Positions 4,887 through 55,991 of a DNA stretch of 64,000 nt are shown piece by piece; the stretch's first letter is position 1; each line of letters starts with the position of its first letter. The stretch spans positions 27,516-91,515 of the forward strand of contig JBFLVL010000009.1 of the NCBI GenBank assembly GCA_040758495.1, written 5' to 3'. A program made the translations under genes and the position numbers. Source of the DNA: Chloroflexota bacterium (GTDB lineage: Bacteria; Chloroflexota; Anaerolineae; Anaerolineales; JBFLVL01). The notes under the pieces are model-generated. The model ran no database searches. It was not told the origin of the DNA and saw nothing but the letters and a program-made list of their open reading frames with translations.

Positions 4887-4914
4887 AGACATTGTTTTTA
4901 ATGGCTAATGACCA

Positions 4915-26200: not shown

Positions 26201-28170
26201 TGTCCAGGCAGACGCGTGATGCTACCCCACTGACGGCTCGAAGAAATTATCAGGTATTCCGCATGGTCAAGGATGTTGATAAACCTGGCTAATTTATCGG
26301 AGTTGTCCTCCCAATACAGTTCGAAGGTTAGGCCATTCTGATAGATTCCACCGAAACCATCGTAACCATCTATTCGCAGAGGCAAGCCGTCATCCCAGGA
26401 AGACTCGTTGGCAATTGACGCTCCAGATAAAGCCAGGGCTCCGTCGCCTTCCACCAAAGCCAGGTTAAGGTAGTAACTCTGATCCTGGCTCAAAGCCACC
26501 GGAGAATCAAGAGGCAGCCAGTATCCTTGCCCGAGCTGGTCATCATTCACCAGAAAATCGCTCTTCACGTGAGCCTCTCCGATGGGGCCACCGTCCAGTC
26601 GGGTTGAAACTGTAAATTGCAGCGTCTTTTGTTCAGGGATGGCTTCTTTATCTACCACATGGGGTAAATACATACCCTCCAGAACAGCGTCAACTTGTGG
26701 TGTGATTCCCCGGGTGTATGGTAAATCAGGGGTAATCGTGTAATCATACGGAAAGGCAACAGGTTGGTTGACCTGCCCTTCAGTAGTGACTAATTGCAGA
26801 TTGATAGCTCCCGGTATGTTTGCAAAAATCCAGCGGGAGGCTTCGATGCGGGTAACAGAGCGGGTGTAAATGCGCGAAAAAGCCCAGGCCCAGGCAAAAG
26901 TACTGACCAGGACTGATACACCCACCACAATTGCCACAGACCGCCGGAAGAGCTGACCTTTTCCGCCCCAGGCAAACCTGGCCACTACCCAGGCAGCGAA
27001 GATCGCTAACGTTGGATACACGGGCAGTTGATAGCGCATCATGGGGTTGAAAATGGAGGATTGCCAGACGAAATAAACCGCTGTCCATGACCACAGGATT
27101 GCATGTTGTCTCCATTCCCCGCGCAACATCCTCCAACCAGCAAACAAAAATCCGCACCATGCCAGCAACCCCAAAGGCATCCCCAAACCCCATCTCACCA
27201 TGTTGATCCAGGCGAACCACATGGGACGGTTTGCCCACTGCAAAGAGGGTGGAAACGTATAAACAGAATCTGCACTTGCCAGCCGTTTCAACTCCTGCAA
27301 GTTCCCTATCCATTGTGGGTTCAGCTTTATGCCCCAAAAGCCCGGACCACTGAATGCATACGGTTGCAGCACACGGAAGGTTACTAAAGCGGTGATCGCA
27401 GCCAGGACAAGGTGAACCAGTGCTGCCGGGAAAGTCCGTCTTTGTTCTTCGGGCGAAGTCTTGCTCGCGCGTATCCACTCTGCCAGGAGCAGGACGAACG
27501 CCACGGGAGCTGCGTTCACCTTCGAGGCCACTGCCATTCCCAAAGCCACTCCGAACAATACATACAAAAGAGTGAAGTTGCCAAACAATCCCCGCAACTG
27601 TTTACTGAGTTGAGAACTACCATCTGACGGCCGTTCGTCCGTAGCTACCCTTACCGCAAAGTATACGGTCAGCAAAGCAAAGAAGGCCATAAAAGTGTCT
27701 TCTTTGAAGAAGTGAGAGAGCTGGATGTCCAGGACAGAAAAAGCTAAAAACGCAGCCGCCAACAAACCCACCCAGCGGTTGTACAACCGCCTGGCGATCA
27801 GGTATACCAGCAATACCATCCCCAGGTCCACCAGCGCGGATATCGGTCGGCCCACAAGGTGGATCTGACCGTAATCGGCCTTGTCCAACCATTCTGCCAG
27901 GTAGCGCACCAGAAAGATGGGGAAGGTGCCATACACGAAAAATGGGTGACCGCGGTTATGAGGGTTCAATGTCGAATTGGCTGTATCGAAATATTCCCCC
28001 AAAGACTTTACCGGTTCCAGGCTGGATTCAACCATCATCAGAAACCGCTCATCGGGATGCAGATATACTGCTTCATCCCAATTTAATCCTGCCAGCCGAA
28101 GATACCCCCCCACTATCAGGACTAAAAGCAGACAGATATGTACTATCCACTCGCTTGAGCGTTTACCCAA
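23287..28170 (-). CDS. Giant (1627 aa) fusion membrane protein: N-terminal GT-C (PMT_2-like) module, central extracytoplasmic domain, C-terminal YYY-motif module
   Basis: The N-terminal loop is ...GLNWDEAVYLHPDERFLMM.... The middle ~340 aa are non-hydrophobic. The C-terminal half carries ...STTFPPYDPWYAGGYINYYYYGFVLV... and a C-terminal tail similar to that of the 829-aa paralog. Confidence 0.8.
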   Translation of the reverse strand: MGKRSSEWIVHICLLLVLIVGGYLRLAGLNWDEAVYLHPDERFLMMVESSLEPVKSLGEYFDTANSTLNPHNRGHPFFVYGTFPIFLVRYLAEWLDKADYGQIHLVGRPISALVDLGMVLLVYLIARRLYNRWVGLLAAAFLAFSVLDIQLSHFFKEDTFMAFFALLTVYFAVRVATDERPSDGSSQLSKQLRGLFGNFTLLYVLFGVALGMAVASKVNAAPVAFVLLLAEWIRASKTSPEEQRRTFPAALVHLVLAAITALVTFRVLQPYAFSGPGFWGIKLNPQWIGNLQELKRLASADSVYTFPPSLQWANRPMWFAWINMVRWGLGMPLGLLAWCGFLFAGWRMLRGEWRQHAILWSWTAVYFVWQSSIFNPMMRYQLPVYPTLAIFAAWVVARFAWGGKGQLFRRSVAIVVGVSVLVSTFAWAWAFSRIYTRSVTRIEASRWIFANIPGAINLQLVTTEGQVNQPVAFPYDYTITPDLPYTRGITPQVDAVLEGMYLPHVVDKEAIPEQKTLQFTVSTRLDGGPIGEAHVKSDFLVNDDQLGQGYWLPLDSPVALSQDQSYYLNLALVEGDGALALSGASIANESSWDDGLPLRIDGYDGFGGIYQNGLTFELYWEDNSDKLARFINILDHAEYLIISSSRQWGSITRLPGHYPLTWAYYQHLMGCPQGHTLEWCYNIAQVGSFEGDLGFDLIKVFQSDPNLGSWRINDQFAEESFTVYDHPKVFIFRKSSDYDPEAVAAILGSVDLSSVRASATEEASKVVLKSLMLPEGRLVEQREGGTWAELFPSDWIINLYPALGAIFWYVSVLILGLLAYPIIRLALSGLADRGYPLARIAGLLMFAYPVWLGGSLGVPATRLTILGVFLGFMLVSGILAYCQREALRQEWRERKKYFLMVEALMLAFFLFDLFIRLGNSDLWHPYKGGEKPMDFSYLNAVMKSTTFPPYDPWYAGGYINYYYYGFVLVGVWIKLLGISPTVVYNLVIPSIFSLMAMGAFSIGWNLVFPKNKDAASQAMRWAKPWKGMTFFVGIAAGLGLAVLGNLGVVRMIFHGLQQLGSPTGSLEGGGVLIRWFWAARGFFETLSGAKLPYRADEWYWNPSRVIPPQGDVEPITEFPFFTVLYADLHAHLIAIPVALLAIAWALSFVFGRAWKREGQSRRSIGQIAWGFMFGGLIIGALYPINLSDIYSYLPLGMVAVAYTLWWYRNEDRDIQVGQNPTDLSERLIRVVKLVLVILLGMAVLAGLAILLYQPYAYWYAQGYRTVDFWKGPRTPSGAYLTHWGLFLFVIVGWIIWETRQWLASTPLSALSRIRPYFGLIQIGVVLLVVSVAGLMYYGVHIAWLVVPLIVWVGVLLLRSGLSDTKRVLLFFVGLGLTLTLMVEVIVVSGDIGRMNTVFKFYLQAWVLFSVSAAVALGLVWRDLKYWLPGWRLFWQLALAFLVAGAALFPFVGTIAKVQDRMASEAPHTLDGMAYMQYATYFDLNKELDLSQDYRAIRWMQDQVKGSPVIVEANSLNLYHWFSRFTIYTGLPGVVGWDWHQRQQRGPASPEKVTERVTQINEFYLTGDIGTAVKFLREYDVQYIIVGQLERAAYPGPGLEKFTAWDGIYWQSVYRDGDTVIYEVMKQP

Positions 28171-28183
28171 ACCTCACTCCTTG

Positions 28184-30310
28184 TCAGGGCACAAGAAAAA
28201 TCATGAAATCCTTCCCCTCAACCGCAGAGACATATCGCTGGAGAATACCCGAAGGATACATATCCGTCAACAAGATACCGGTTAGCTCGTCCTCGGGTTT
28301 ATAAATAAACAGCTTCGGAGGGGGGATCTCAAGGGTCGCGGGTAAATCCTTCCCCCATAGGGCATAGTCCTTCTCTGGCAAACCCACGTTGATTCCCACC
28401 ACGCGGGTATCCACCCAATGGGGAAAGGGTACGACCCAGGCAGTTTCCGCCTCACCGATCGAATCAGCGTACGAACGGATGACATGTCCGATTTCGCTCG
28501 TGTTCCATGTGTTTTGCCTCATCTGGCGGAAATATTGATCGAATACCAGATCATAATTCTGGATAGAGGACCACGATAAAAGGAGGAAGACTGCTCCCCA
28601 GAGGATTCCACCCCCCGCGCGGGTTTTCACCGCGGATTTCAGGCTGGTCAAAAAACCCTCAAACAGAATCCCCACCACAACAAAGACCGGCACAATTGCC
28701 CCACCTGTACGATTCAGAGAAGGATTCTCAGCCGGAAACGCCAATGAAAGCACAGAAGGCATCAACAGCATAGGTATGGATAATAATAAAAAGGCGTCTT
28801 CCCATTGCCGCCTGCGGATGTAGCGAGTTAAGAGAAATACTACTCCCAAAAAGAACAACGCCCCCGAAACAACATCCAACGCCGGACGATGGGTAACGGA
28901 GTGCACCCAGGTCGAGCCGTCGTCCCAAAAGAACATGGTCACCGCCCCCCACAGGTTATCAAAAAAGATGCGAACAGGAGAATCGGGGTAACTCCGCTCC
29001 ATCGTACCAATTCGGGTTAGCGTTCGATAGGAAAAGTTAGCCGGCTCTGCCAGAGCATAACGCAGCAGAGGGAGAAAGACGACAAAAGAAACCAACACCA
29101 GAGCCACCAAAGCCCAGATGGTTTGTACGCGAGCGCCCTTAGACACTCTATGCAACAGATACAAACCTACACCCAATAACACTAAGAAAGGTACAAAACG
29201 GAAAGGGCTGTATCCGTGTAACCCTAAACCTAACGCCAACCCTGCCAACAGCAAATCATTACGGTTCCGGTTTCGCAACCCTCGTATCAGGTAATATAGA
29301 GTTGGAGCGACAAACAGAGGATAAAAAGCAAAGCGTAAGGCGATACGAGAAATCACATTTGGCCAGTAAGCAATGCCCGCGAACAGCATGGCCCATAAAC
29401 CCACCCGTTTTCCCCCCACTTCCTTCCCTAGCAGGTACACATAAGGTAAAGTCAAAACACCTGCTAAAGCTGTACCAATTTTTAAGCTGAGGTATGTCAG
29501 GCCAGTCCCCAACACTCTGGCCACCAGCGCGGTCACGACCATTTGTATGGCCTCCCGTCCGGTGTTGCGAGGGAAGAACACCCACCAGTTACCCCGGAGC
29601 ACATCAGCAACATCCAGCAATTTCTCAGCATGGTCACTGATCATCTCCGGAGGGACATCTCCCAGACGATAAAAGCGGAAAAACACTGCCAGACCAAAAA
29701 CCCCCACCCAGGAAATAGCCCAGGGAGTGATACGCACCCACCAGGTACGTTGAGCAATTCCCTCGCGCAACCTCGCAAACCAATCCCTAAAGGACAAGCC
29801 TCGCGACACCCAAAACGTTTTTAACAAGGCTACAACGGTCAATAACCACAGGAAGAGGTTTAAGCCATCAAAGCGCAAGCTACCAAAAGCTAAAAACGTG
29901 AAAACCGCCAGGGGAATAAAAATGTAGAACCAGTTACTTTTGATGGTCAAAGGGTCTTCCATGTGCAGGCTGGGGGGAATATCTGGGCCTGACCACTCCC
30001 CTCGCCAGATTAACCAGACCAACAACAAACCAGCCAGTGCATAAAAAGTTATCCCTACCCAGATGTTCCTGTCCCCTGGTTCTAGGGAACGCTGGGCGAT
30101 AAGAGCCAACGCTACAGGCAGCCACATATACCAGATAACTGCTGGCCTCTTCCCTTCCCTCCCAGGAGGTAGACCACCAGGTTCAGGAAACCCCTCCTCC
30201 ATAGCCTCACGTTTGGGAATGTCAGGCGCGGGACCCTTCCAGGGGGTTAACTTCGCCTTGAGGTAATCTAATACGCTTGGTTCTGGTTGTCCGTTTTCCT
30301 TCATCATCAT
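28184..30310 (-). CDS. Glycosyltransferase family 39-like (ArnT/PMT-like) membrane protein
   Basis: The 708-aa ORF has more than 10 TM segments and the loop FYRLGDVPPEMISDHAEKLLD. The track start overlaps the methyltransferase gene by 89 nt. An internal ATG at 30202 (MEEGFPE...) would remove the overlap. Confidence 0.7.
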   Translation of the reverse strand: MMMKENGQPEPSVLDYLKAKLTPWKGPAPDIPKREAMEEGFPEPGGLPPGREGKRPAVIWYMWLPVALALIAQRSLEPGDRNIWVGITFYALAGLLLVWLIWRGEWSGPDIPPSLHMEDPLTIKSNWFYIFIPLAVFTFLAFGSLRFDGLNLFLWLLTVVALLKTFWVSRGLSFRDWFARLREGIAQRTWWVRITPWAISWVGVFGLAVFFRFYRLGDVPPEMISDHAEKLLDVADVLRGNWWVFFPRNTGREAIQMVVTALVARVLGTGLTYLSLKIGTALAGVLTLPYVYLLGKEVGGKRVGLWAMLFAGIAYWPNVISRIALRFAFYPLFVAPTLYYLIRGLRNRNRNDLLLAGLALGLGLHGYSPFRFVPFLVLLGVGLYLLHRVSKGARVQTIWALVALVLVSFVVFLPLLRYALAEPANFSYRTLTRIGTMERSYPDSPVRIFFDNLWGAVTMFFWDDGSTWVHSVTHRPALDVVSGALFFLGVVFLLTRYIRRRQWEDAFLLLSIPMLLMPSVLSLAFPAENPSLNRTGGAIVPVFVVVGILFEGFLTSLKSAVKTRAGGGILWGAVFLLLSWSSIQNYDLVFDQYFRQMRQNTWNTSEIGHVIRSYADSIGEAETAWVVPFPHWVDTRVVGINVGLPEKDYALWGKDLPATLEIPPPKLFIYKPEDELTGILLTDMYPSGILQRYVSAVEGKDFMIFLVP

Positions 30311-31118
30311 CTACCAGTTGATGGATTTGTCCTCTCAACCGAGTGATATAAAACGTATACACGCCCTCCGGCTGAGGGACGGGCTCATTATAATGTGGCT
30401 CTACCAAACCGCGGGTTAGTGCCAAGTTCCACCGAAAAGGAGCAATAATCCAGCGACCAAACAGCCATTTACAGACCAGGGATGGAAACTCGAAAAAATG
30501 CCCCCACTCCAACACAGCCAAGGCCTCGGGAGAGAAATAATGCCAGTATTGTTCAATCTCATAGCCAGCCCATTCCAACCTGTTTCGCCAAACCTCTACA
30601 GAATCACAGTGATGATGTCGGGAGATTCGGTTGAAAGCTGCTCGATAGCCATTTCCCAACCAGCGCAGACCCACTTTATCGAAAAACCGTCCTATTGAGA
30701 GCTTGGGCAGAAATAAGTGGTTAGGAACACTGAATACAAACCTCGACCCCTGCTTCAACACCCTGGCAATTTCCCTGAGCATCGCATCTACATCACATAC
30801 ATGCTCCAACACAGAATTACTGACCACACTGCAGAAATAGGCCGTTGGAAAAGGAAGGTGACACCCATTCGATTGGATCCTGTACTGGTAAGCCCGGTAC
30901 CCGGCAGCTTCTTGAAGTACCGAGAAATCGCAATCCAAACCTACCTCTAGTGTCCTCTGAAATGCGTTACTGGCGAAATGCCCATCACCACAACCCAGAT
31001 CCAGGGTCGGTGGGTGCAAGGGGATATCCCGATAAAAAACGGCCTCTTTGGCTCGCAGTAATCCGCGGAAATACGGCAGATCGCGGAGATGCATCCATAG
31101 CAGATCTTCGTTCTTCAT
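30222..31118 (-). CDS. Class I SAM-dependent methyltransferase
   Basis: The 298-aa ORF has motif I, LDLGCGDGHF, and the later motif GSRFVFSVPN. Confidence 0.8.
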   Translation of the reverse strand: MKNEDLLWMHLRDLPYFRGLLRAKEAVFYRDIPLHPPTLDLGCGDGHFASNAFQRTLEVGLDCDFSVLQEAAGYRAYQYRIQSNGCHLPFPTAYFCSVVSNSVLEHVCDVDAMLREIARVLKQGSRFVFSVPNHLFLPKLSIGRFFDKVGLRWLGNGYRAAFNRISRHHHCDSVEVWRNRLEWAGYEIEQYWHYFSPEALAVLEWGHFFEFPSLVCKWLFGRWIIAPFRWNLALTRGLVEPHYNEPVPQPEGVYTFYITRLRGQIHQLVDDDEGKRTTRTKRIRLPQGEVNPLEGSRA

Positions 31119-33109
31119 GTGCTGTGTAGGTCATTAACTATGGTTACCTTCTCTGCAGGCTTACTACCTCCAGGAATTCGCCACAGATAAATACACAAGA
31201 CGACACCCACAACAGATATCACCAACCCCAGGACAACATCCCAGGGTAAATAGCGGAAAATAATTGTATGGTTACCTGCTGGCACCTCGACTTCCAACCA
31301 GTTATCTCCCTGCAACATTACCCGCTCACCGTCTCGCCAGGCTTTCCATCCTGACCACATGTTCTCCTTGACTACCAACCGACCGTTCTCTTGTGCTTGG
31401 CAAGAGACTTCAATGTAACCTCCTGCCCCCTGAGCAGTGCAAGGATATTGTGCTTCACCAGCAACCACCGCAGCATAAGGCTGGTCGTTTCGGGCATAGA
31501 TGGGGATACCGTCAATTTCATTCACTTGTTCGACTGGCCCAGGAGGAGGGCCAGCACGGTTGGCCTCCAATACCGGTATAGGAAATTCGCGGTCTTTCCA
31601 GCGCCAGCTCATAATGCCTGGGCTGAGCTTAAAACCCATAGATATAGCCGGTTCAACATAAAAATGCTCTCCAAACGGCGGCTCCACCCATTGCAGATCA
31701 GGCGTTTCTAAACCCCCCAACAAATCATAGATAGGCTGCTCCCAGCAGGATGTGGTGTACCACACCCTTGAAAAGATGTAATTACTGTGCAAACTCAGTA
31801 CCAGTGGGATAACCAACACCCACACTGCGGAAACCCTCCACTGCTCTGTTCTCCCGCTTTTCTTAAAATCCATCCATAACACTGGCCAGTCAAGTCGCAG
31901 CAACCTTTCCAATCCGTAAGCTGCTAACCCCAAAATCAACGGTACTGCTAAAGCCGCAATCTGAGGAGGATGACGGACACCTGCAACCGAGGGAAAAACT
32001 TTCACCAATAAACGCAATACCTCCCCGCTGGCCACCAGGAACTGTAAGAGAATGGCCCCCGAAAAGACATACAACAATCGCCTGTCCTTCGAACGTCCGG
32101 ATGCCACACCAATCACCGCCAAAACCACCGCCACCCAACCGATGTAATTGGCGTATAAATGAGGGTAAGGGAATTTTGACAATGCCTCATCCCAATAAAA
32201 ATCAATTTCATTGATGACCAGATTCAGAGGCACATAGGCTAACGGTTGCGCAGATCGAAACGTCGGATCCGTTTCTTTGACAAAATTTGGCAAGAAATGC
32301 AATGTGGGAATCAAAAAGATTCCCGCCAGGAGCAAAGCTAACCCAACCGCCAATAAAAACTCTTTCCACACCGGTTTCAGGTTAAAACCATCATCGAAGA
32401 GCAGAAAAAAGAAAGCCGGGACGGTTACCAATAGACCGATTTGAATATACCCCTGCCCGGCCACTATGGCGGAGGCGATTGTCACACCCAACAGAACCAT
32501 CGTCCTTCTACCGCCCCTTCGTGCAACCGCAACCACTGCTGGATACACCAGGCTGCACATTGCGATAGAAAGTACAACACCAAACGCACCCAACTCCATG
32601 CGAGCAGACAAATACCCTCCAAATACCGCCATCAGAGAACTCCACAACCTGGGTATTCGAGAAAGTCCCAGCTCGCGTGAAAGCCACCATTGACCCACAC
32701 CCGCGAACCAGATGGCCATCACTAACATAAGTTTTACCCCATTGACCACACCTAACAATAAAGTTAACCCCATCACCAGGGGATGCAACATGCTTCCATG
32801 CAGATCAACAAAGGCTGGATATCCACCTCGCTCAAATCCATTCCATAAGGCACAAATCCCACATTGCTTAAACAGCGTCCAGATATGATGCGTCTGAATC
32901 GCGCTGCCAAATTCACGACCGTTAGCCACAACGCGGGGGGTTAGGTTCAGGTACTCTCTACCCACCCACATTGCAGCTAGGGCCAGAAGTGACAACTCCA
33001 AGGCGGGAACAACCCAGGTTCTGGCACCTAAAAGAAAGCGTTCCCAAAACAGTAGTAGTTGAGTGTTTCTACACATGACTTCTTTTATCCTCTTTCCCCT
33101 TGGTCTCAA
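31115..33109 (-). CDS. Polytopic membrane protein with a C-terminal extracytoplasmic domain and a terminal TM; function unknown (possible GT-C/YfhO-like)
   Basis: The 664-aa ORF has ~12 hydrophobic helices followed by a soluble region ~170 aa long and a final TM segment. It has 4-nt overlaps on both sides. I did not recognise a diagnostic motif. Confidence 0.6.
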   Translation of the reverse strand: MRPRGKRIKEVMCRNTQLLLFWERFLLGARTWVVPALELSLLALAAMWVGREYLNLTPRVVANGREFGSAIQTHHIWTLFKQCGICALWNGFERGGYPAFVDLHGSMLHPLVMGLTLLLGVVNGVKLMLVMAIWFAGVGQWWLSRELGLSRIPRLWSSLMAVFGGYLSARMELGAFGVVLSIAMCSLVYPAVVAVARRGGRRTMVLLGVTIASAIVAGQGYIQIGLLVTVPAFFFLLFDDGFNLKPVWKEFLLAVGLALLLAGIFLIPTLHFLPNFVKETDPTFRSAQPLAYVPLNLVINEIDFYWDEALSKFPYPHLYANYIGWVAVVLAVIGVASGRSKDRRLLYVFSGAILLQFLVASGEVLRLLVKVFPSVAGVRHPPQIAALAVPLILGLAAYGLERLLRLDWPVLWMDFKKSGRTEQWRVSAVWVLVIPLVLSLHSNYIFSRVWYTTSCWEQPIYDLLGGLETPDLQWVEPPFGEHFYVEPAISMGFKLSPGIMSWRWKDREFPIPVLEANRAGPPPGPVEQVNEIDGIPIYARNDQPYAAVVAGEAQYPCTAQGAGGYIEVSCQAQENGRLVVKENMWSGWKAWRDGERVMLQGDNWLEVEVPAGNHTIIFRYLPWDVVLGLVISVVGVVLCIYLWRIPGGSKPAEKVTIVNDLHST

Positions 33110-43748: not shown

Positions 43749-44552
43749 TAGTGATAATAGTACGTATCGCATAGGAAGTGAAAATTCATCTATAATCCAC
43801 TTTAAATTTGATTTATAATAAGCAAGAATAATAGCAACGATCTCTCCAAAAAAGTGTTTCTATATACGACAAAGCATCCTGGGCCAAAAGCTAACAGTCA
43901 ATGTATGCTCTATATTCATGCTTTTGCCAAAAGACCATAGCGGATTGGCACATGGGGGTTACCAATCCGAGGGTTGTTGTACGTATTAACGTCAATGAGC
44001 GTTAATTGCTCTTGGCGTTTTTGTTTTATTGGTTTTGGAGCGGCACCTTTCAAGCGTAGCCTCAGCGTGGCGAGCATATACAGAAGCAGGCCAGACATCT
44101 AGCACGGCATTAAATTCTACCCTGGCACGTGCACTCATGTTCTTACGAAGGTAAGCCACACCGAGGTTGTAGTGCGCAGCAGCCTCATTACGCCTAAATA
44201 CCCCTGGTTATCCTGCTGCAAAACATCAGTGAACAAGGTAGTGGTTTCTTCTAATCACCTGAGCAGTGATACTCCTCCAAACAGGACTACGTAGTAGAAA
44301 CCTTCAAGTAAAAGAATTACAAGCAGACTCACAATACCACTAATGTTATCCAGAATTATTCATCAGTATGCCTGCCTTATCAAGATCAAGTGTATCAATG
44401 GAAGATTGGATGAATGAAAAGGAGGTGAGCATATCGGAGAACTACGTATTGAATACACCTTTTCATCGTGGCATAAGCCCGAGTTATGCGGGTGAATGCT
44501 AACCAAATACCATCATTTTTTTTGTACAATCTTTTTCTATAAGGAGAAAAAT

Positions 44553-46268
44553 ATGAATTCCCTTCTTGTTCTAATTTTGGCAGCCCTTGGTATCGGTATT
44601 GGATATGGCATCTATGCCAAGAACGTCGACAAAAAGATCGTCGAACCCAATCCAGATAAAGCAACGCCGGCAAAGATGTACATGGACGGGGTAGACTTCA
44701 CCCCAGCTACCCGTAATGTGTTGTTTGGTTACCAGTTCAAATCTGTGGCAGCGTTGGCGCCTCTCACAGGGCCTGTCATTGCCGTTCAATGGGGCTGGCT
44801 ACCCGCGCTGCTGTGGATCATCCTGGGCGTCTTCTTCATTGGTTGGGTGCAGGACTACGGTGCCATGATCATGGGCGTACGCCGCGAAGGAGAGACCATG
44901 GGAGCGTTAAGCTACAAGCTGATTTCTCCACGCGCACGCACCATCCTGATGATCTTCATCTACTTCTACCTGCTGCTGATCATGGGCGCTTTCGGCAACG
45001 CAGTCGGAAAGACCTTGATGGTCAAACCCACGGTGCCGTTCGGCATTATTGCCCTTGTGCTGATGGGCGTGCTGGCTGGGCAGATGACCTACCGCTGGAA
45101 GCAAGACATCATTCTTACATCCATCGTCACCGTCATCTTGACTTTCGTTGGCATCTGGCTCGGTACCACTGAGGCTGTCTCAAATTTCTTTGGCGCTCTC
45201 TATGGTCTTCCCGAATCACCCCAGTGGTTCCTGGGCAATACCCAGGCGGCTGTGCTGGGCACCATCCTGATGGTTATCTTCTGTTATCTCGGCGCGGTAT
45301 TGCCTATCTGGAGCTTCGCCCAGCCGGTTAACTATGTGTCCTTCTGGATCGTGACGTTGGGTATGATCAGCGCTGTGCTTGGTCTGTTGATCTGGCGTCC
45401 CGGCATGGGAGATTTCCCAATCTTCACCCAGTTCACCACCGCCAGCGGACCGCTATGGCCGATGCTCTTCGTTACCATCGCCTGTGGTGCCATCTCCGGC
45501 TGGCATAGCCTGGTTTCCACCTCAGGTACGGCGCGCCAGCTCGAAAAAGAGACCGATGCCCTGCCGGTTGGCGGCGGAGCCATGTTTATGGAAGCCGCTT
45601 TCGCTGTTGTCGCTTTCCTGACCGCCACAGTCGCCTTTGGCAGCTTCCAGGGATATATGGATGCCGGCGGCCCAGGCGCAGCGTTGGGGGTCTTTGCCAA
45701 AGGGCTTGCTGCTTTCATGAACAGGGTTGGCGTCCCTGAAACCTTCGGTGTGGCTTACGGCTCCGTTTTCCTGACCATCATGGCGATTACAATCATGCAA
45801 TTGGTGGTGCGCTTCATGCGAGTGGCCAGCGCTGAGTTGCTTGGCGATAAAATGCCAGTGATGAAAAATGTGCATGTGGGCACCATCATAGCATTGCTTC
45901 TGACCCTGCTGTTCGTCTGGATCATCCCCTGGTTGGCAATCTGGGGCGCCTTCGGCGCGGCTAACCAGTTGATGGCCGGGCTGGCCTTGCTGTTGATCGC
46001 CCTGTGGTTGAAGTCGGAGGGCAGGAAGAATGGCTGGGCGCTCTATCCGGCCATCTTCATGATCGTCACAGACATGGCCGCCCTGATCTTCCTGGCGTAT
46101 GTAAACTTCAAGAAGCTGGCTACTCCCGAGATCACCACACAGGCTTTCATCGCCTCCATACTCCTGGGGATCATCGCGGTGGTTCTGATCGTCGCAGCGG
46201 CCATTCTGATCATCGATGCCTGGAAGGCACTGCGCGCCCCAACAAAAGAGGTTGCCAGGGCAGCCTGA
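44553..46268 (+). CDS. cstA: Carbon starvation protein A-family transporter
   Basis: The ORF has more than 14 TM segments and carries ...TPAKMYMDGVDFTPATRNVLFGYQFKSVAALAPLTGPVIAVQWGWLPALLWI.... ATG 44553 is preceded by AAGGAG at 44541-44546. The track's 19-aa extension is rejected. Confidence 0.85.
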   Translation: MNSLLVLILAALGIGIGYGIYAKNVDKKIVEPNPDKATPAKMYMDGVDFTPATRNVLFGYQFKSVAALAPLTGPVIAVQWGWLPALLWIILGVFFIGWVQDYGAMIMGVRREGETMGALSYKLISPRARTILMIFIYFYLLLIMGAFGNAVGKTLMVKPTVPFGIIALVLMGVLAGQMTYRWKQDIILTSIVTVILTFVGIWLGTTEAVSNFFGALYGLPESPQWFLGNTQAAVLGTILMVIFCYLGAVLPIWSFAQPVNYVSFWIVTLGMISAVLGLLIWRPGMGDFPIFTQFTTASGPLWPMLFVTIACGAISGWHSLVSTSGTARQLEKETDALPVGGGAMFMEAAFAVVAFLTATVAFGSFQGYMDAGGPGAALGVFAKGLAAFMNRVGVPETFGVAYGSVFLTIMAITIMQLVVRFMRVASAELLGDKMPVMKNVHVGTIIALLLTLLFVWIIPWLAIWGAFGAANQLMAGLALLLIALWLKSEGRKNGWALYPAIFMIVTDMAALIFLAYVNFKKLATPEITTQAFIASILLGIIAVVLIVAAAILIIDAWKALRAPTKEVARAA

Positions 46269-46301
46269 TCGGTTCAGTCTTATCTAATCAATATCCTTAA
46301 T

Positions 46302-46329
46302 AAGGGAGGGTAGTTGCCTACCCTCCCTT
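46302..46329 (+). terminator. Strong hairpin after cstA (12-bp perfect stem, 4-nt loop)
   Basis: The sequence AAGGGAGGGTAG-TTGC-CTACCCTCCCTT lies 34 nt after the cstA stop. The U-tract is poor (T then ATAAAAA), so termination efficiency is uncertain. Confidence 0.5.
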
Positions 46330-46377
46330 TATAAAAAGCATTTCGGAGTAGCTACTCAACCTGATGTAAATGCTTCC

Positions 46378-46422
46378 GAAAATGGTAAACGAAGGGGAGG
46401 GACCCCTTCGTTACCATTTTTA
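46378..46422. terminator. Bidirectional intrinsic terminator
   Basis: The sequence GAAAATGGTAAACGAAGGGG-AGGGA-CCCCTTCGTTACCATTTTT forms a stem of ~18 bp with one bulged A. It is flanked by an A-tract on the 5' side and a T-tract on the 3' side. Confidence 0.7.
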
Positions 46423-46464
46423 TGAGTAATTCTGTTCCATAATTTCTTCGAGTGCGATATCGTT

Positions 46465-46839
46465 ATGCCCAAACCAATAAAACTGGAAATCCTTTCGCTG
46501 GTGCCCATGACGTACAAACAGTGACCGCACTGCGAAAAGTTATATGACCAATCGGGCATTGGGCAACAGGTACACAATCAAATACTGGCGGAATATCCTC
46601 AGGACCTTCTCGAAGATCATCATCGACTCTCCTCTCTGGTGGTAGAATTAAGTAGTCGCTTCAAAGATGACATTGTTATTTCTGTTATCGATCCCCAATC
46701 ATTGCCGGGAATCTTCAAATCGTTCCGTTACCGGGTACGAAAGTATCCCACTTTTATCATAGACGGACAGGAATTAGTTACCGGTTGGGATCGGGCAGCA
46801 TTGGATCGTGCGCTGGAATCTCGGCTTTCGTCTCCATAG
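46465..46839 (+). CDS. Thioredoxin/glutaredoxin-fold protein with an in-frame TGA (46522-46524) at the first position of a U/C-P-H-C motif; candidate selenoprotein
   Basis: The track calls only a GTG-started 66-aa ORF (46639..46839). The same frame is open back to ATG 46465 apart from one TGA. The translation is MPKPIKLEILSLVPMTYKQ-[TGA]-PHCEKLYDQ...KYPTFIIDGQELVTGWDRAALDRALESRL. This gives a beta1 strand, the redox motif, and a cis-Pro/beta3-beta4/alpha3 signature. There is no clear SD at 46465. Confidence 0.5.
46545..46565 (+). other. Candidate bacterial SECIS hairpin
   Basis: The hairpin UG(A)CCAAU-CGGGC-AUUGG(G)CA has 7 bp plus one mismatch and a G-rich 5-nt apical loop that starts 28 nt after the UGA. 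Confidence 0.35.
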
Positions 46840-46890
46840 AGGATTGAGCTGAGAGTACAATCAGTTCAGCTATGGAAAGCTAAGGAGTTC

Positions 46891-47178
46891 ATGTTCTCTC
46901 AAGCGAAAACCTGCGTAAAGAACGCGCTACAAACCATCCGTGAAGTCTTATACGGCATGACCATATACGATTGGGCGCGCGAACTCGAAAGGGCCCGCAA
47001 CGAACGTGATCGTCTCTTCACAATGATCGCATACGGAGAACTGCTCGGTATTCCTATCCTGCCTCCCTATTACATCTTACGCCTGATACCCTATATTGTG
47101 CCAGACTTCCCAAGCTGGCAGCGAAGTATGTTGCGCGAACGAGATCTCACCGATCTCTTCGATCAAGAAATTGGATAA
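46891..47178 (+). CDS. Small protein A (95 aa), unassigned family; paralog of the next gene
   Basis: An AAGGAG SD lies at 46882-46887. The C-terminal half is ...GELLGIPILPPYYILRLIPYIVPDFPSWQRSMLRERDLTDLF. Confidence 0.75.
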   Translation: MFSQAKTCVKNALQTIREVLYGMTIYDWARELERARNERDRLFTMIAYGELLGIPILPPYYILRLIPYIVPDFPSWQRSMLRERDLTDLFDQEIG

Positions 47179-47197
47179 ATATAAGGAGAACTTCACC

Positions 47198-47476
47198 ATG
47201 ACAGAAGAAGAACGACAAAATATCCTCAAGAGAGCAGGAAAATCGGCCATCGAATTCATCTATGGCATGGCCGGTCACGATATGACTCGCTTCGCCCTGA
47301 AAACCAGGGGGAGTATGGAGCATTTGTTTATCCTGATCACCATGGGTGACTTGCTCGGTGTGCCCATCCTGCCACCTTATTATTCGCTGCGGTTGCTGCC
47401 ATATGTCGTTCCACAAATTTCGACCTGGAAACGGCGCATGTTGCGCGAGCGCGACCTGACCGATGCCCTGGCTTAG
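47198..47476 (+). CDS. Small protein B (92 aa), paralog of small protein A
   Basis: An AAGGAG SD lies at 47183-47188. The C-terminal half is ...GDLLGVPILPPYYSLRLLPYVVPQISTWKRRMLRERDLTDAL. The track's extension to 47096 overlaps gene A and is rejected. Confidence 0.75.
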   Translation: MTEEERQNILKRAGKSAIEFIYGMAGHDMTRFALKTRGSMEHLFILITMGDLLGVPILPPYYSLRLLPYVVPQISTWKRRMLRERDLTDALA

Positions 47477-47490
47477 AAGGGAGCTGATGC

Positions 47491-48492
47491 ATGTCTCTGG
47501 CACGCATTTTTGACGAACATCCAGAACGACGCTACATTATGTTTGGCGGCAAGGGCGGCCTGGGAAAGACCACCTTTTCGGCTGCCACGGCCTATTATCT
47601 GGCCAAAAAAGGCCATAAGGTGTTAGTTTTTTCCGTAGATCCCCAGGCTTCCCTCTCCGACATCTTCGAGCGCGACATCTTTGGACAGGGGGCAGTGGAG
47701 ATTATGCCCAACCTCTACGCCCAGGAGATCGACGCCGACCGTCACATCAAGGAATACCAGGACGAAATCCGCCAGAAGATCTTCGATATGTACGGCCTGG
47801 AGGAAATCCCTGAAGAGATCGAAAGTTATATCCAGGCTGCCGCGGCCGAACCGGCCATGGAAGAGAGCGCCATCTTCGACCAGGTGGTTGATATCGTGGT
47901 CAGCGCAGAATATGACTACTATATCTACGACCTGGTACCTCTCGGTCACGCGCTTTATTACCTGAGCATGGCCAGCGTGTACGACGAGTGGATCGACAAG
48001 ATCACCAAGCTTCGCCAGGAGATGGAGGAATACAGCAAGGTGGCCTCACTTATCAAGCGCGAAAAAGAATTCGAAGAGGATATGATCCTCCAAGAATTGC
48101 TCGATATCAAATACCGCATCAACACCTCCTCCGGTATCCTGACAGATAAAGATAAGACGGCCTTCTTTTTTGTGATCATCCCGGAAGAGATGGCCTTGCT
48201 GGACACCCAAAAAGCAGCCGGTTTGTTTGCCAAATACCAAGTGCCCCTAAGCGGTTACGTGGTAAACCGGGTCATTCCACCCGAATTAGAGCAGCAAAAT
48301 ATCCCCGATTATTTACGTCATCGCTTGGATATGCAAGGAGGCTATCTAAAACGAATTGACGACCTATTCAAAGAGAATGTGTTGGCCCGAATCCCTGAGT
48401 TCGAGCGCGACATCACTGGGCTGCCAATGATTCGCAAAGTTGCCGAGGCGATGTTTGGCACGATACCAGCAGACGAAGGAGCATTGTCATGA
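47491..48492 (+). CDS. ArsA/Get3-family P-loop ATPase, paralog 1
   Basis: The 333-aa ORF has the deviant Walker A FGGKGGLGKTT, the switch-I-like SVDPQASLSD, and the switch-II position YDLVPLGHA, which keeps GH but has lost TAPT. An AAGGGAG SD is present. Confidence 0.85.
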   Translation: MSLARIFDEHPERRYIMFGGKGGLGKTTFSAATAYYLAKKGHKVLVFSVDPQASLSDIFERDIFGQGAVEIMPNLYAQEIDADRHIKEYQDEIRQKIFDMYGLEEIPEEIESYIQAAAAEPAMEESAIFDQVVDIVVSAEYDYYIYDLVPLGHALYYLSMASVYDEWIDKITKLRQEMEEYSKVASLIKREKEFEEDMILQELLDIKYRINTSSGILTDKDKTAFFFVIIPEEMALLDTQKAAGLFAKYQVPLSGYVVNRVIPPELEQQNIPDYLRHRLDMQGGYLKRIDDLFKENVLARIPEFERDITGLPMIRKVAEAMFGTIPADEGALS

Positions 48493-49466
48493 TTGAGAAG
48501 TCAATGCAAGATTATTTAAAAGAGAATCCCCGGCTGAAATACACCTTTTTCGGTGGTAAGGGTGGTGTTGGAAAGACGGTTCTGGCAGGTGCGATGGCCT
48601 TGGGATATGCCAGGCAGGGTAAGAGCACCATCCTGGCCTCCACAAACCCTGTTCACAGTCTCACCAGCCTGCTCGATCAAGATGTCTTCGGAAAACCAAC
48701 GCTTGTCTCTGGTGTACCCAATCTGACAGCTTATGAGATCGACACGCGTGATACCATCGAACGGTCGAAGCTGGAAATCCGCGAGAAGATCAGCTGGTTC
48801 CTCAAATTCGCCGACATCAAAACCAAGGCTGATGAATTCGTCGAATCGGCTACAATGAATCCTGCATTCGAAGAGTCGGCCATGTTCGAAAACATGATAG
48901 ACCTGATGTTCAAAGACGAGTATGAAGTCTATGTCTTCGATACGGCTCCGACCGCCAATGCACGTCGCTTGCTAGGCATGTCATCGGTCTATTCGATGTG
49001 GGTCAACAAGATGGTCAAAAGCCGCGAAGAGGCAAGGTCGTTGCGCGAACTGCTATCGTATAGCAAAAAGAAAGAGGAAAAGGATCCTCTTATGGAATAT
49101 CTCCTCAACCTCCAAGATCGGATGGGACGCGCTAAAAACCTGCTTACCAATCCCGCGTTGACTGCCTTCTTCTTCGTCACCCTTCCCGAAGCGCTGCCGA
49201 TTGCCGTGATTACCCGTTTCATCAATTGGTTCGAGGAATTCGGCATTCCAGTTGGGGGGGTAGTGGTTAATATGCTTATTGACAAAGACAGCGTTGCTGA
49301 GGACGCGCCCGAGTTTGTGAGAAACCGGGTCAAGATGCAGGCAAACTATATGAACGAGATATGGAAAATATTCAATGGAAGCGTTCGCTCGCTTGTGCCA
49401 TTATACGAAACTGAGGTGCGCGGCGTCGAGATGCTAGAGAGAACCGCCGACTCCCTGTTCGCTTGA
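48489..49466 (+). CDS. ArsA/Get3-family P-loop ATPase, paralog 2
   Basis: The 325-aa ORF has a 4-nt overlap with paralog 1. It has FGGKGGVGKTV, the switch-I position STNPVHSLTS (D replaced by N), and switch II FDTAPTANA, which keeps DTAPT but has lost GH. Confidence 0.85.
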   Translation: MIEKSMQDYLKENPRLKYTFFGGKGGVGKTVLAGAMALGYARQGKSTILASTNPVHSLTSLLDQDVFGKPTLVSGVPNLTAYEIDTRDTIERSKLEIREKISWFLKFADIKTKADEFVESATMNPAFEESAMFENMIDLMFKDEYEVYVFDTAPTANARRLLGMSSVYSMWVNKMVKSREEARSLRELLSYSKKKEEKDPLMEYLLNLQDRMGRAKNLLTNPALTAFFFVTLPEALPIAVITRFINWFEEFGIPVGGVVVNMLIDKDSVAEDAPEFVRNRVKMQANYMNEIWKIFNGSVRSLVPLYETEVRGVEMLERTADSLFA

Positions 49467-49490
49467 GGAGGAGCGGGTGATCTATGAGAA

Positions 49491-49524
49491 ATGCCCTGGA
49501 CCTCGACCAGGCCAGGGCGTTTTC
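49491..49524 (+). terminator. Possible attenuator hairpin between ArsA paralog 2 and the TPR gene
   Basis: The hairpin GCCCTGG-(12 nt)-CCAGGGC is followed by GTTTTC. The stem is only 7 bp and the T-tract is short. Confidence 0.3.
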
Positions 49525-49544
49525 ATTGACAAAAAGGTTTACTT

Positions 49545-50162
49545 ATGAACCCATACTTGATGATCCTGCTAATCGGGTTGTTCTATATTGTCCTTTTCGG
49601 AGGATTATCCTTGCTTCGCCGCGAGGGCCTGTCGCTCCAATTTGCCTTCGAGGTGTTGGGCGTTACCGCACTGGTCGAGGCCTTCGCCATCCTGACAGGA
49701 ATACCGATCAACCCGCTCATTTTCATAATAATCATCTACCTGATCTCGATGCGGGTTCGTCTGATTGTCGATCTGGCTAATGTGCTTTCAAACCGCGGGC
49801 GTCAGCGAGATGCAATAAACCTGTTGCAATTTGCCTTGCGCCTGTACCCCGACCACAGCGCCCGCCTGGTTGTCTACGTCAATATGGGCATCGTTCAATT
49901 ACGCAGGCAGAATCCCGAAAGCGCCAGAGACCTCTTCGATCAAGCTCTAGAAGAATCCCAACAGGGGGGCCTGGGGATCAAGTACGAAGCGGCCTGTCGC
50001 TACAACCTGGCTCTGGCACTGCAACACCTGGGCAAAGAGGCAGAAGCTGTGCGCCAATTCAACGAAACGATCGTCATTTTCCCCAATTCGATCTACGGCA
50101 GAGCAGCCGAGCGCGCCCTGGAAAAGCACCGCCATCGGCACCGCGGGGAGAGTCAGGAATGA
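49545..50162 (+). CDS. Membrane protein with 3 N-terminal TM helices and a cytoplasmic TPR domain
   Basis: The 205-aa ORF has a hydrophobic N-terminus (MILLIGLFYIVLFGG..., ...LIFIIIIYLISM). TPR-like repeats follow (...AINLLQFALRLYPDH..., ...ARDLFDQALEE..., ...ACRYNLALALQHLGKEAEAVRQFNETIVIFP). Confidence 0.75.
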   Translation: MNPYLMILLIGLFYIVLFGGLSLLRREGLSLQFAFEVLGVTALVEAFAILTGIPINPLIFIIIIYLISMRVRLIVDLANVLSNRGRQRDAINLLQFALRLYPDHSARLVVYVNMGIVQLRRQNPESARDLFDQALEESQQGGLGIKYEAACRYNLALALQHLGKEAEAVRQFNETIVIFPNSIYGRAAERALEKHRHRHRGESQE

Positions 50163-53851: not shown

Positions 53852-53972
53852 CCTGCAAGTTGTAACCATCTTGTTATCATATCGTACAGGCACCTGCCAT
53901 AACCACCCTGGCAACATGTCAAATCGTCTCACGAAATTAAATATCATAGAAAACCCGAAGTGCAATTCTAAT

Positions 53973-55991
53973 ATGCCCGTGAAAAGGCCGTCGCATTATT
54001 TAATAATAACTGGCTTGATACTCGCCCTGTTCTTATCGGCGTGTTCATCTGCGGGAACAGCTGCCCTCCCGACCGAAGACCACATTGAGACAGTAACTAC
54101 CAGCCTTGTAGAAAATGAGGAAGAAGAGCGAATCATCGGAATCATCACTGCGGTGATCGGACTTTTACTCATGGCCTCCCTGGTTGGCATCGTCACCAAC
54201 CAGTTACGTTTGCCGTACACGGTAGGATTGGTGCTCATTGGGCTTGCCCTGTCACTGCGGGGTCAGGAAAGAATATACATTCCACCTGAAATATTTCTGG
54301 GCTTACTTGTACCACCCCTGATATTCGAGGCTGCCTTCCATATCAAAATAAGAGACCTGCAAAGGGACCTAATGCCCATACTTACCCTGGCTATCCCCGG
54401 TGTGTTGATCACCACATTACTTGTAGGCGGTGTCGTAGCCTGGGGCACAGGCTTCCCACTGGCAGTAGCTCTCGTCTTCGGAGCCTTGGTGGCAGCCACC
54501 GACCCAGTAGCTGTAGTGGCACTCTTCCGAACATTGGGAGTTCCTAAACGACTACAGGTACTTCTGGAGGGCGAGAGCCTCTTCAATGATGGTACAGCCA
54601 TTGTTGTCTTCAACTTGATGACGGTTATAGCGGTGAGCGGGGTTTTCGAACCTCTGAGGAGTATGATGGATTTCGTCATTGTTTCCGGGGGAGGTTTAGC
54701 TGTCGGTTTCGTGTTGGGTATATTCATCTCCCAGGCCATCAGCCTCTTCCACAATCCCATGATCGAAACCACATTGACCACCGTCCTTGCGTTCGGAGCT
54801 TATATCGTCGCCGAGCAACTGCATGTCAGCGGCGTATTAGCTGTTGTAGCTGCCGGCCTGGTCAGCGGGAACATTGGCCCACGCGGCATGTCACCATCTA
54901 CACGTATTTTAGTATTCAACTTTTGGGAATACGCTGCTTTTTTAGCCAACTCGATTGTCTTTTTGTTGATTGGTTTTCAAATCAACTTGCAGGTGTTGTT
55001 GGTCAACTGGCAGGTCACAACCTGGGCGATACTGGCAGTGTTAGTCGCTCGCGCCGTAAGTGTATACGGGCTCTCAGGGGTTGGTCCAGGGGTGCCAAAG
55101 CGCTATAAACACGTTCTATATTGGGGAGGATTACGTGGTGCTATTTCGCTGGCACTGGCTCTCAGCATCCCCACCTCTTTGGGTGCCCCCAGAGACGAAA
55201 TTCAAACCATGGCCTTTGGTGTGGTGCTTTTTACCCTCCTGGTGCAAGGTCTGACGATGAAACCTTTGATCACCAAAATGGGCCTCATTCAACGCACCAG
55301 AGCCCAGGAGGAGTACCAACGCCGTCACGCCCGTGCCATAATGGCCCGGGCTGCGTATGACCGCCTGGAGTACATGTATAAGGAGGGGTTGCTCTCCAAC
55401 CACGTCTGGGGGTTGTTATCCGAACCCATCCGGTTACACGCTGAAGGCTTGGCAAGCGCGGTGACTGAAGTCCTGCAAGCTGATCCAGGTTTAGAAGCTG
55501 AAGAAGTGGACTCGGCGTTGCGAGATCTGCTGCAAACCCAACGCAGTTCACTGACTACCATGCTCAGGGACGGGTTGATCTCCGAAGACACATTCTCACA
55601 GCTCGTCATGGAGGTAGACACAGCGTTAACCGAACAACGTTCAAACTTGATCGAACTCCTGGTGTACAGAACCAGCCGAGCTATCCATGGGCTGATGGCC
55701 ATTGTTTTACAGGAAGCAGATGTAGAGAACGTGGTCGCGGCACTGAGCCGCCAGGGTCTACCCACAACCAGACTATCCAGCATCGGTGGCTTCCTGCACC
55801 AGAAAAACACCACTCTGTTAGTGGGAGTACCGGAAGGACAAGAGGATGCCATCCTTAAAACCGTCACCAAAACCAGCCGCCAGCGGGTTGAATCGTTCCG
55901 CGTCTCCGCGGATGGCATCGACACTTCTCCTCCTGTCACTGTGGGTTCAACGATCTTCGTCTTTGACGTCGAGCGATATGAGGAACTCTGA
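53973..55991 (+). CDS. CPA1 (NhaP-type) Na+(K+)/H+ antiporter with a long cytoplasmic tail ending in a PII-like cyclic-di-AMP-receptor (DarA/PstA-like) domain
   Basis: The core has ~12 TM segments with ...FGALVAATDPVAV... and ...LEGESLFNDGTAIV.... The C-terminal ~105 aa are LMAIVLQEADVENVVAALSRQGLPTTRLSSIGGFLHQKNTTLLVGVPEG...GSTIFVFDVERYEEL. The start was placed at ATG 53973 (MPVKRPSHYLIITGLILALFLSAC). Confidence 0.85.
   Translation: MPVKRPSHYLIITGLILALFLSACSSAGTAALPTEDHIETVTTSLVENEEEERIIGIITAVIGLLLMASLVGIVTNQLRLPYTVGLVLIGLALSLRGQERIYIPPEIFLGLLVPPLIFEAAFHIKIRDLQRDLMPILTLAIPGVLITTLLVGGVVAWGTGFPLAVALVFGALVAATDPVAVVALFRTLGVPKRLQVLLEGESLFNDGTAIVVFNLMTVIAVSGVFEPLRSMMDFVIVSGGGLAVGFVLGIFISQAISLFHNPMIETTLTTVLAFGAYIVAEQLHVSGVLAVVAAGLVSGNIGPRGMSPSTRILVFNFWEYAAFLANSIVFLLIGFQINLQVLLVNWQVTTWAILAVLVARAVSVYGLSGVGPGVPKRYKHVLYWGGLRGAISLALALSIPTSLGAPRDEIQTMAFGVVLFTLLVQGLTMKPLITKMGLIQRTRAQEEYQRRHARAIMARAAYDRLEYMYKEGLLSNHVWGLLSEPIRLHAEGLASAVTEVLQADPGLEAEEVDSALRDLLQTQRSSLTTMLRDGLISEDTFSQLVMEVDTALTEQRSNLIELLVYRTSRAIHGLMAIVLQEADVENVVAALSRQGLPTTRLSSIGGFLHQKNTTLLVGVPEGQEDAILKTVTKTSRQRVESFRVSADGIDTSPPVTVGSTIFVFDVERYEEL

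Follow-up and report, generated by a model that had tools for sequence, protein, structure and literature searches.

The question raised by this locus is whether a TGA codon lying within an otherwise open reading frame is read as selenocysteine (Sec) or ends translation. The frame occupies positions 46465..46839 on the forward strand of a 64,000-nucleotide stretch of contig JBFLVL010000009.1 from a Chloroflexota bacterium. This whole stretch was analysed and is referred to here as the window. The frame comprises 124 codons followed by a TAG stop, with the UGA to be read through at codon 20. We consider it very probable that 46465..46839 is a genuine Sec-encoding gene, whose product, a thioredoxin-like selenoprotein, has been missed by the calling of open reading frames (ORFs).

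The interrupted frame and its relatives

The ORF list for the window holds in this frame only a GTG-initiated ORF of 66 residues (46639..46839, forward strand), which we regard as the C-terminal half of the same gene and not as a separate gene. The initial annotation had claimed that the frame stays open upstream of this ORF to an ATG at 46465, save for one TGA, and translation of the region bears this out: the sole internal stop is the TGA at 46522-46524, and the ATG lines up with the initiating methionine of full-length homologs. The read-through product is MPKPIKLEILSLVPMTYKQ*PHCEKLYDQSGIGQQVH...KYPTFIIDGQELVTGWDRAALDRALESRLSSP, in which the asterisk stands for the TGA codon, and the residues around codon 20 are LEILSLVPMTYKQ-U-PHCEK. 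The U-P-H-C motif placed there by the initial annotation is thus present, with P-H-C directly following the TGA. The TGA is the proposed codon for Sec20, an assignment based on the alternation of TGA and Cys codons in relatives, and the TGC at 46531-46533 encodes Cys23, the conserved, resolving cysteine of the UxxC motif, which falls in the first turn of a helix (residues 21-29) in the structural model described below. Towards the C-terminus, the product contains the string KYPTFIIDG. Its conserved proline, Pro95 (codon 46747-46749), belongs to an R-K-Y-P loop encoded at 46738..46749 and is presumed to be the cis-proline of the fold.

TGA is the commonest stop codon in the window, terminating 22 of its 41 long ORFs. 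An alternative genetic code is thereby ruled out, and any recoding is confined to the codon at 46522-46524. Pairs of ORFs joined across a single TGA number 81 in the 64 kb analysed, so that the bare observation of such a pair is no rarity by chance; it is the comparative evidence that lifts the present case above chance.

A protein search with the read-through product, U being written as C, found 53 relatives, about 20 of them full length (119-141 residues) and the remainder of 68-96 residues, starting after the motif. We also took 95 related loci from genomes and metagenomes and translated them across the region. In the codon comparison, which covered the window and roughly 78 related loci, the first codon of the CxxC motif is TGA in 29 sequences (the window included), TGC or TGT in about 47 and TTA in two, the last being copies of one decayed gene. 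Full-length relatives have either Cys or TGA in this column. They possess the N-terminal strand and the CxxC motif and do not begin at the equivalent of 46639; homologs starting there without these features were what the initial annotation had named as speaking against the claim. The nearest relative, L016, which is 79% identical to the window protein, is itself a TGA form. Two short database proteins encoded on long contigs, P0038 and P0030, both go back to TGA at this codon, and it is also this TGA that cuts short the calls of the database proteins of 75-96 residues. Four 'full-length' database proteins (P0003, P0007, P0014 and P0015) have Trp at the active-site position. P0014 equals the translation of locus L023 except for a W in place of the TGA, and because of this match the Trp entries are most likely artefacts that arose when genes were called under a code that treats TGA as sense.

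A neighbour-joining tree spreads the TGA forms over at least four clades, and in the clade of the window they are interspersed with Cys forms (L023/L020, L018/L021, L017 and L003/L004). This interleaving points to repeated exchange of Sec and Cys, which in turn excludes a one-off nonsense mutation or sequencing error. Selection on the two sides of the TGA was compared on TGA-bearing loci of two clades as the ratio of nonsynonymous to synonymous substitution rates (dN/dS). For the 16 codons upstream, dN/dS is 0.08 in the Chloroflexota clade (nine sequences) and 0.13 in the delta-proteobacterial clade (12 sequences); for the 32 codons downstream, the values are 0.085 and 0.087, respectively. The upstream value equals the downstream one, which means that the stretch before the TGA shares its translated frame with the remainder of the gene.

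These data bear directly on the simplest alternative, namely that a Cys codon has been turned into TGA by a nonsense mutation, or by an error of sequencing or assembly, leaving a pseudogene or a plain CxxC gene. A single base change converts TGC or TGT to TGA, Cys forms are the majority of the family, and a decayed copy with TTA and a second stop does exist (L013/L082). Set against this are the intact frames with the same TGA in 28 further independent loci of differing sample and clade, the equal purifying selection before and after the codon, the TGA in the nearest relative, and the co-occurrence of the TGA with the RNA hairpin described below. As judged from these sequence comparisons, the alternative appears to be largely refuted, and we regard it as extremely improbable.

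A second alternative is that translation does end at the UGA and that the functional product is the 66-residue protein starting at GTG 46639, perhaps accompanied by a 19-residue leader peptide. ORF callers give this product, and many such short calls are found in public databases. The 38 codons between the TGA and the GTG nevertheless lack a start codon in the window and are conserved, being kept as protein in all homologs; they encode the second cysteine and helices 1-3. Truncated calls, moreover, start variably from locus to locus, and the short product would have neither strand 1 nor the active site and only one half of the fold. The 66-residue protein is therefore a highly improbable end product.

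An exhaustive profile search retrieved, out of 1.84 billion, 358 representative clusters at E ≤ 1e-3, and residues were counted over the best 150 of them. Position 20 is Cys in 104 of 114 representatives, as is position 23 in 108 of 115; Pro95 is found in 140 of 146, preceded by Tyr in 106, and Asp76, Ser79 and Gly82 are nearly invariant. The N-terminus is missing from 41 of these 150 representatives, most of which start at profile positions 24-41. N-terminally truncated calls make up about a quarter of the representative clusters of this selenoprotein family.

Two further loci were noted in passing. The decayed gene is that of Deltaproteobacteria bacterium RBG_13_49_15 (L013 10001-10351; L082 is identical), where TTA (Leu) replaces the Sec/Cys codon and a second stop interrupts the frame further downstream. 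An Ardenticatenales metagenome-assembled genome (MAG) contains a TGA version (L003 93-446) and a TGC version (L004 2907-3260) on two contigs with near-identical upstream DNA; going by their sequences, these may be either paralogs of recent origin or strain variants, in which case one population would be polymorphic for Sec and Cys.

The hairpin downstream of the TGA and the proposed decoding of UGA

In bacterial Sec decoding, SelB-GTP carrying Sec-tRNASec binds an mRNA hairpin and delivers Sec to a UGA situated at a fixed distance upstream. A hairpin resembling such a selenocysteine insertion sequence (SECIS) is present on the forward strand at 46546..46564, with a stem formed by 46546-46552 and 46558-46564 and the loop CGGGC at 46553-46557, which begins 28 nt past the UGA. 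Six of the seven stem pairs are formed, five of them contiguous and one apart, the seventh being an A × G mismatch (46547/46563); there is besides an outer U-A pair (46545/46565). The published consensus for the bacterial element (bSECIS) specifies a loop of 3-9 nt, a stem of 4-16 bp, a distance of 16-37 nt from the UGA, a G within the first two loop positions, after which G or U usually comes, and a folding energy of −7.5 kcal/mol or lower (PMC13188914). With its loop of 5 nt, in which position 2 and the next are both G, a stem of 5-7 bp and a spacing of 28 nt, the window hairpin lies within this geometry. The initial annotation had described the hairpin at 46545-46565, with a G-rich loop 28 nt after the UGA, and had judged it to fit bacterial SECIS geometry; the structure is indeed there in the sequence and the published model accommodates it. 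It is also the one feature that parts TGA forms from Cys forms.

RNAalifold gave no consensus structure for the alignment of TGA forms, and pairs were therefore counted explicitly against two controls, the Cys forms and slid registers. The counts were made on 26 distinct TGA sequences (A2) and 35 Cys-codon sequences (A3), both gap-free from −3 to +60. In the TGA forms, 89% of the cells in stem columns 28-34/40-46 are standard pairs, as against 14-44% in slid registers. Both sides have changed in four of the seven pairs (25 cells), a result matched by none of 500 shuffles. In the Cys forms, the same columns are paired in 46% of cells, within the 24-51% given by slid registers. The apical loop reads C-G-G-G-N in nearly all TGA forms. 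The stem visibly limits the pairs of amino acids allowed: TGA lineages carry either Ser and Ile (UCG...AUU, with a U-A closing pair) or Ala and Leu (GCG...CUU, with a G-C closing pair), whereas most Cys lineages have Ala and Ile, Ala and Val, Thr and Val, or other combinations that are unable to form the loop-closing pair.

Compared with the bacterial SECIS of the Escherichia coli fdhF type and the bSECIS of Zhang and Gladyshev (as given in PMC13188914), the window hairpin is alike in forming a stem-loop within the reading frame, on the 3′ side of the UGA. It differs in being short (5-7 bp) and weak, in having no conserved lower stem and in finding no match in Rfam.

A number of results tell against the decoding of this UGA as Sec. 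No Shine-Dalgarno-like sequence precedes the ATG at 46465, as the initial annotation had remarked. A scan for redox motifs in the remaining TGA-bridged ORFs of the window gave no convincing case, and there is no second selenoprotein candidate. Neither selA, selB, selD nor tRNA-Sec was found in the 64-kb window by a tRNA scan and by tblastn with E. coli SelA, SelB and SelD, in agreement with what had been noted from inspection. The window hairpin alone has a folding energy of −3.7 kcal/mol, weaker than the −7.5 kcal/mol limit of the model (other loci range from −2.5 to −9.9 kcal/mol), and the 82-nt region 46519-46600, at −11.5 kcal/mol, folds no better than shuffled sequences (z = +1.25). Besides the want of an RNAalifold consensus for the 26-sequence TGA alignment, Rfam returned nothing relevant, either at the gathering threshold on the whole window or at E ≤ 10 on 46450-46650. 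Finally, the hairpin is still present in the three closest Cys forms (L017, L020 and L021), and its conservation in the clade of the window could be partly a matter of inheritance. Retention of the hairpin in these Cys forms would be expected after a recent conversion from Sec.

It might then be argued that the hairpin is a by-product of a conserved peptide, DQSGIG or GQAGLD, and of shared ancestry, any SECIS lying elsewhere. The hairpin does lie inside this conserved peptide, and the null RNAalifold result and the hairpins kept by close Cys relatives are in keeping with such an origin, as is L003, a TGA form that has a different, stronger fold in place of the hairpin. Cys lineages with the same or a similar peptide (for example, QAGIG) nevertheless use codons that do not pair, so that their 46% is that of the slid controls, and the double compensatory changes in the TGA forms recur across clades. 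We consider it unlikely that the hairpin is a by-product and retain it as the candidate SECIS.

Evidence for the Sec machinery was sought beyond the window. A tRNA scan of 58 related loci found no tRNA-Sec, and tblastn with the three E. coli proteins over all loci identified selD in L010 only. This locus is a TGA-form locus from a delta-proteobacterial MAG; its selD (4709-5722) lies 4.3 kb upstream of the family member, is 40% identical to E. coli SelD and carries, in frame, a TGA where that protein has Cys17. The L010 organism therefore decodes Sec. By synteny and identity, the closest relatives of the window are Anaerolineae/Anaerolineales MAGs. SelB and formate dehydrogenases of the Sec type are reported from single-cell genomes of Anaerolineales, and SelB is also encoded by A. 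thermophila (PMC4959059); BSepDB lists Chloroflexota MAGs with 46-49 selenoprotein genes (PMC13326102).

With no Sec machinery found in the 64-kb window, read-through of the UGA by a route other than Sec has to be weighed, with a near-cognate Trp or Cys tRNA or a suppressor tRNA inserting the residue and the hairpin acting as a general stimulator of read-through. The Trp found at this codon in the four database entries would fit such a route, though it is most likely the effect of gene calling discussed above. The relatives that lack the TGA, on the other hand, have Cys in a CxxC motif and never Trp from TGG, which is the classic Sec/Cys pairing. In addition, TGA is the main stop codon, the composition and spacing of the loop match the SelB-type SECIS model, and a related locus, L010, encodes a Sec-containing SelD. 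Read-through without Sec is accordingly very unlikely in our estimation. For the organism of the window, we infer Sec insertion, the UGA at 46522-46524 being presumably decoded through the hairpin.

Predicted fold, redox site and family

The fold was modelled with AlphaFold2 on an alignment headed by P0001, a Cys form 79% identical to the window protein. The P0001 model has a predicted local distance difference test score (pLDDT) of 93.7. It consists of four strands (5-10, 70-75, 96-99 and 103-106) and five helices (21-29, 33-42, 46-69, 80-88 and 110-123). The CxxC motif at 20-23 opens helix 21-29, with Cys20 just before the helix and Cys23 inside it, and the conserved Tyr-Pro directly precedes strand 3 (96-99). 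On this model, the product is predicted to take the glutaredoxin-like, four-stranded form of the thioredoxin fold, enlarged by a helical insert. A Foldseek search of the Protein Data Bank (PDB) returned, among its top 50 matches, almost exclusively thioredoxins and thioredoxin fusions (best E = 2.8e-3; template modelling scores of 0.5-0.6). The initial annotation had proposed that the two halves of the frame together make one thioredoxin/glutaredoxin fold, with an N-terminal strand, a cis-Pro loop and a terminal helix, and these elements find their counterparts in the model of the 79%-identical relative as strand 5-10, Pro95 before strand 96-99 and helix 110-123.

The product would thus be a 124-residue cytoplasmic protein of thioredoxin/glutaredoxin fold with the active site Sec20-Pro-His-Cys23. 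It would act as a thiol-disulfide oxidoreductase, cycling between the selenol/thiol and the selenenylsulfide states, and the Cys20 relatives would perform the same chemistry by means of CxxC. For an oxidoreductase function of this kind, which is argued from the modelled fold and the motif, we have moderate confidence. The profile searches count against it. In Pfam, the window protein scores 14.3 bits with Thioredoxin (PF00085; cut-off 23.5) and 13.4 bits with Thioredoxin_3 (PF13192; cut-off 24.8; E = 0.083), and Glutaredoxin (PF00462) gives no match. A sequence/profile search of the PDB yielded marginal thioredoxin matches only (best E = 0.12). None of 28 family members matches PF00085, PF00462 or PF13192 at E ≤ 0.01. 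The only NCBIfam match of the window protein is to TIGR02196 (GlrX_YruB), at 16 bits with a cut-off of 88.6 (E = 0.012), and the 28 members together give stray weak matches (TIGR03757/DUF1525, TIGR00412 and, for one member at E = 0.009, SaoT), none near its cut-off.

How the family relates to proteins already described can be considered case by case. The bacterial Sec-thioredoxins (PF00085) and Sec-glutaredoxins (PF00462) with UxxC motifs (PMC13188914, Table 1) are likewise small proteins of thioredoxin fold, in which Sec takes the place of the first Cys of a CxxC motif that opens helix 1, and strand 3 follows a conserved proline loop; they too have Cys orthologs and a SECIS hairpin within the coding region just after the UGA. 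Unlike thioredoxin and glutaredoxin, the candidate family stays below Pfam cut-offs, connects strand 1 to the motif by a long loop and has a helical insert of 40 residues (helices 33-42 and 46-69) separating helix 1 from strand 2. It also has invariants of its own, IDPQS, G82, RKYP and G107. With MTH895/ArsE, the 'redox-active disulfide protein 2' (TIGR00412, PF13192), it shares the minimal four-stranded, glutaredoxin-like fold and an N-terminal redox motif. Weak matches to TIGR00412, Thioredoxin_3 and GlrX_YruB run over YPTFIIDG...G (E = 0.004 with TIGR00412 in one of 28 members), but all are far below cut-off and the candidate family is about 45 residues longer. The listed thioredoxin-like selenoproteins Sec.1 and Sec.2, which are counted with the MTH895/ArsE family, have the motifs CxU and UxC, not UxxC (PMC13188914).

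Two more distant comparisons were made. The window protein and the delta-proteobacterial clade have the same Pro-His dipeptide as the DsbA active site, which we take to be CPHC. The window protein lacks a signal peptide as well as the helical domain of DsbA. Within the family, the dipeptide between the redox residues varies (QH, LH, AH, MH, TS and others), and because of this variation we ascribe the DsbA-like motif to coincidence and not to homology. ArsD, the thioredoxin-fold metallochaperone of ArsA, is similar in its length of about 120 residues, its thioredoxin-like fold and its gene position beside ArsA-family ATPases, but an ArsD-like role was rejected: hhalign with one ArsD sequence gave a probability of 0.5%, and no ArsD appears in the top 50 Foldseek matches. 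The ATPases encoded nearby, moreover, contain no Cys, and therefore would not bind As(III) in the manner of ArsA, and the delta-proteobacterial members have no ArsA neighbour.

Table 1 of a 2026 review defines 119 selenoprotein families by InterPro, Pfam or NCBIfam identifiers (PMC13188914). The Pfam and NCBIfam models of these families, among them SaoT (NF040730), HUIPC-motif (NF047660), VPGUxxT (NF041383) and GOS_C (NF045500), do not reach cut-off with the candidate, for which neither database has a model of its own. We think it best called a new family of a known kind, in that both the mechanism and the UxxC thioredoxin-fold type of protein are textbook matter. The understanding of Sec decoding and of thioredoxin-fold chemistry is left unchanged, and specialists will not be surprised. 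What is added is a Sec/Cys family that has good support, has switched repeatedly between Sec and Cys and carries a compact SECIS. In the window and in numerous public records the gene is called wrongly, as a fragment of 66-96 residues, with Trp at the active site, or as a 'hypothetical protein', the name borne by every named family member bar one with a spurious label. As the family lacks a Pfam or NCBIfam model, annotation pipelines are unable to rescue the gene.

Gene neighbourhood

The candidate gene is preceded on the same strand by a gene for a CstA-family transporter (44496..46268; Pfam CstA, E = 4e-114), which adjoins it in most loci of the Chloroflexota type. The gap between the two contains a terminator-like hairpin followed by a run of T (46388..46422, forward strand; terminator scan). 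A scan of 46200-47000 found no sigma-70-like promoter. On the downstream side, 51 nt separate the selenoprotein gene from the next gene. From this gap and the terminator-like hairpin after cstA, we suggest that the selenoprotein gene probably heads the downstream operon. A second strong GC-rich hairpin in the cstA/selenoprotein gap, at 46303-46328, was read from the sequence.

Five genes follow, all on the forward strand and all assigned with the help of synteny. The first two encode small DUF7990 proteins (46891..47178 and 47198..47476), each with a sub-threshold match to NF041419 ('cory-CC-star'); orthologs of the first carry PF25952 (DUF7990). The next two encode ATPases of the Get3/ArsA family (47491..48492 and 48489..49466), the second overlapping the stop of the first. 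Both are free of Cys and match TIGR00345 (GET3_arsA_TRC40), and the first also matches Pfam ArsA_ATPase (E = 3e-72). The last conserved member is a tetratricopeptide repeat (TPR) protein with a hydrophobic N-terminal half (49545..50162; Pfam TPR families). The order cstA, selenoprotein gene, two DUF7990 genes, two Get3/ArsA-type ATPase genes and TPR gene is kept in essentially all Chloroflexota-type loci. Across loci, identity is mostly 75-96% for small protein 2, 73-95% for ATPase 1 and 40-79% for the selenoprotein, so that the downstream genes are by far the more strongly conserved. The selenoprotein gene points to a tightly conserved Chloroflexota operon, with two DUF7990 proteins and a pair of Get3/ArsA-type ATPases, of which it would encode a candidate redox component.

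The delta-proteobacterial members lack the Chloroflexota-type neighbours, and the association is therefore lineage-specific. The product may have a functional link with the neighbouring DUF7990 and Get3/ArsA-type proteins. In its fullest form, the proposal would be that the product is the first member to be recognised of a selenoprotein family outside the 119 listed, and that in Anaerolineae-type Chloroflexota its Sec/Cys centre is a redox partner or switch of the module, which would consist of two small, hydrophobic DUF7990 proteins, a heterodimeric Get3/ArsA-type ATPase without Cys and a TPR membrane protein. We put this forward tentatively and as rather doubtful; if it were true, selenium redox chemistry would be tied to a bacterial Get3-like protein-handling system.

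Some minor observations concern these neighbours and the remainder of the window. The module at 46891-50162 gives weak NCBIfam matches to BagA/BagB and NosAFP, and a search for literature on BagAB and CC-star produced nothing usable. In place of the Chloroflexota-type genes, the delta-proteobacterial members are accompanied by genes for a universal-stress-like protein, a dienelactone-hydrolase-like protein and a third neighbour, of 242 residues (L011 11499-12227), that, by eye, we take to resemble a tandem DsrC/TusE-type repeat. The window contains gyrA (4915-7359) and rpoC (7541-11836) and is therefore chromosomal. On its reverse strand, a run of genes at 20801-33109 encodes very large membrane proteins, two of them with DUF2298 (one of 1627 residues that also has PMT_2), a further one with PMT_2 and one YfhO-like, which suggests a glycosyltransferase or cell-envelope cluster. 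At 53871-55991 lies a gene for a protein of the Na+/H+ exchanger family with a C-terminal cyclic-di-AMP receptor domain (CdAMP_rec).

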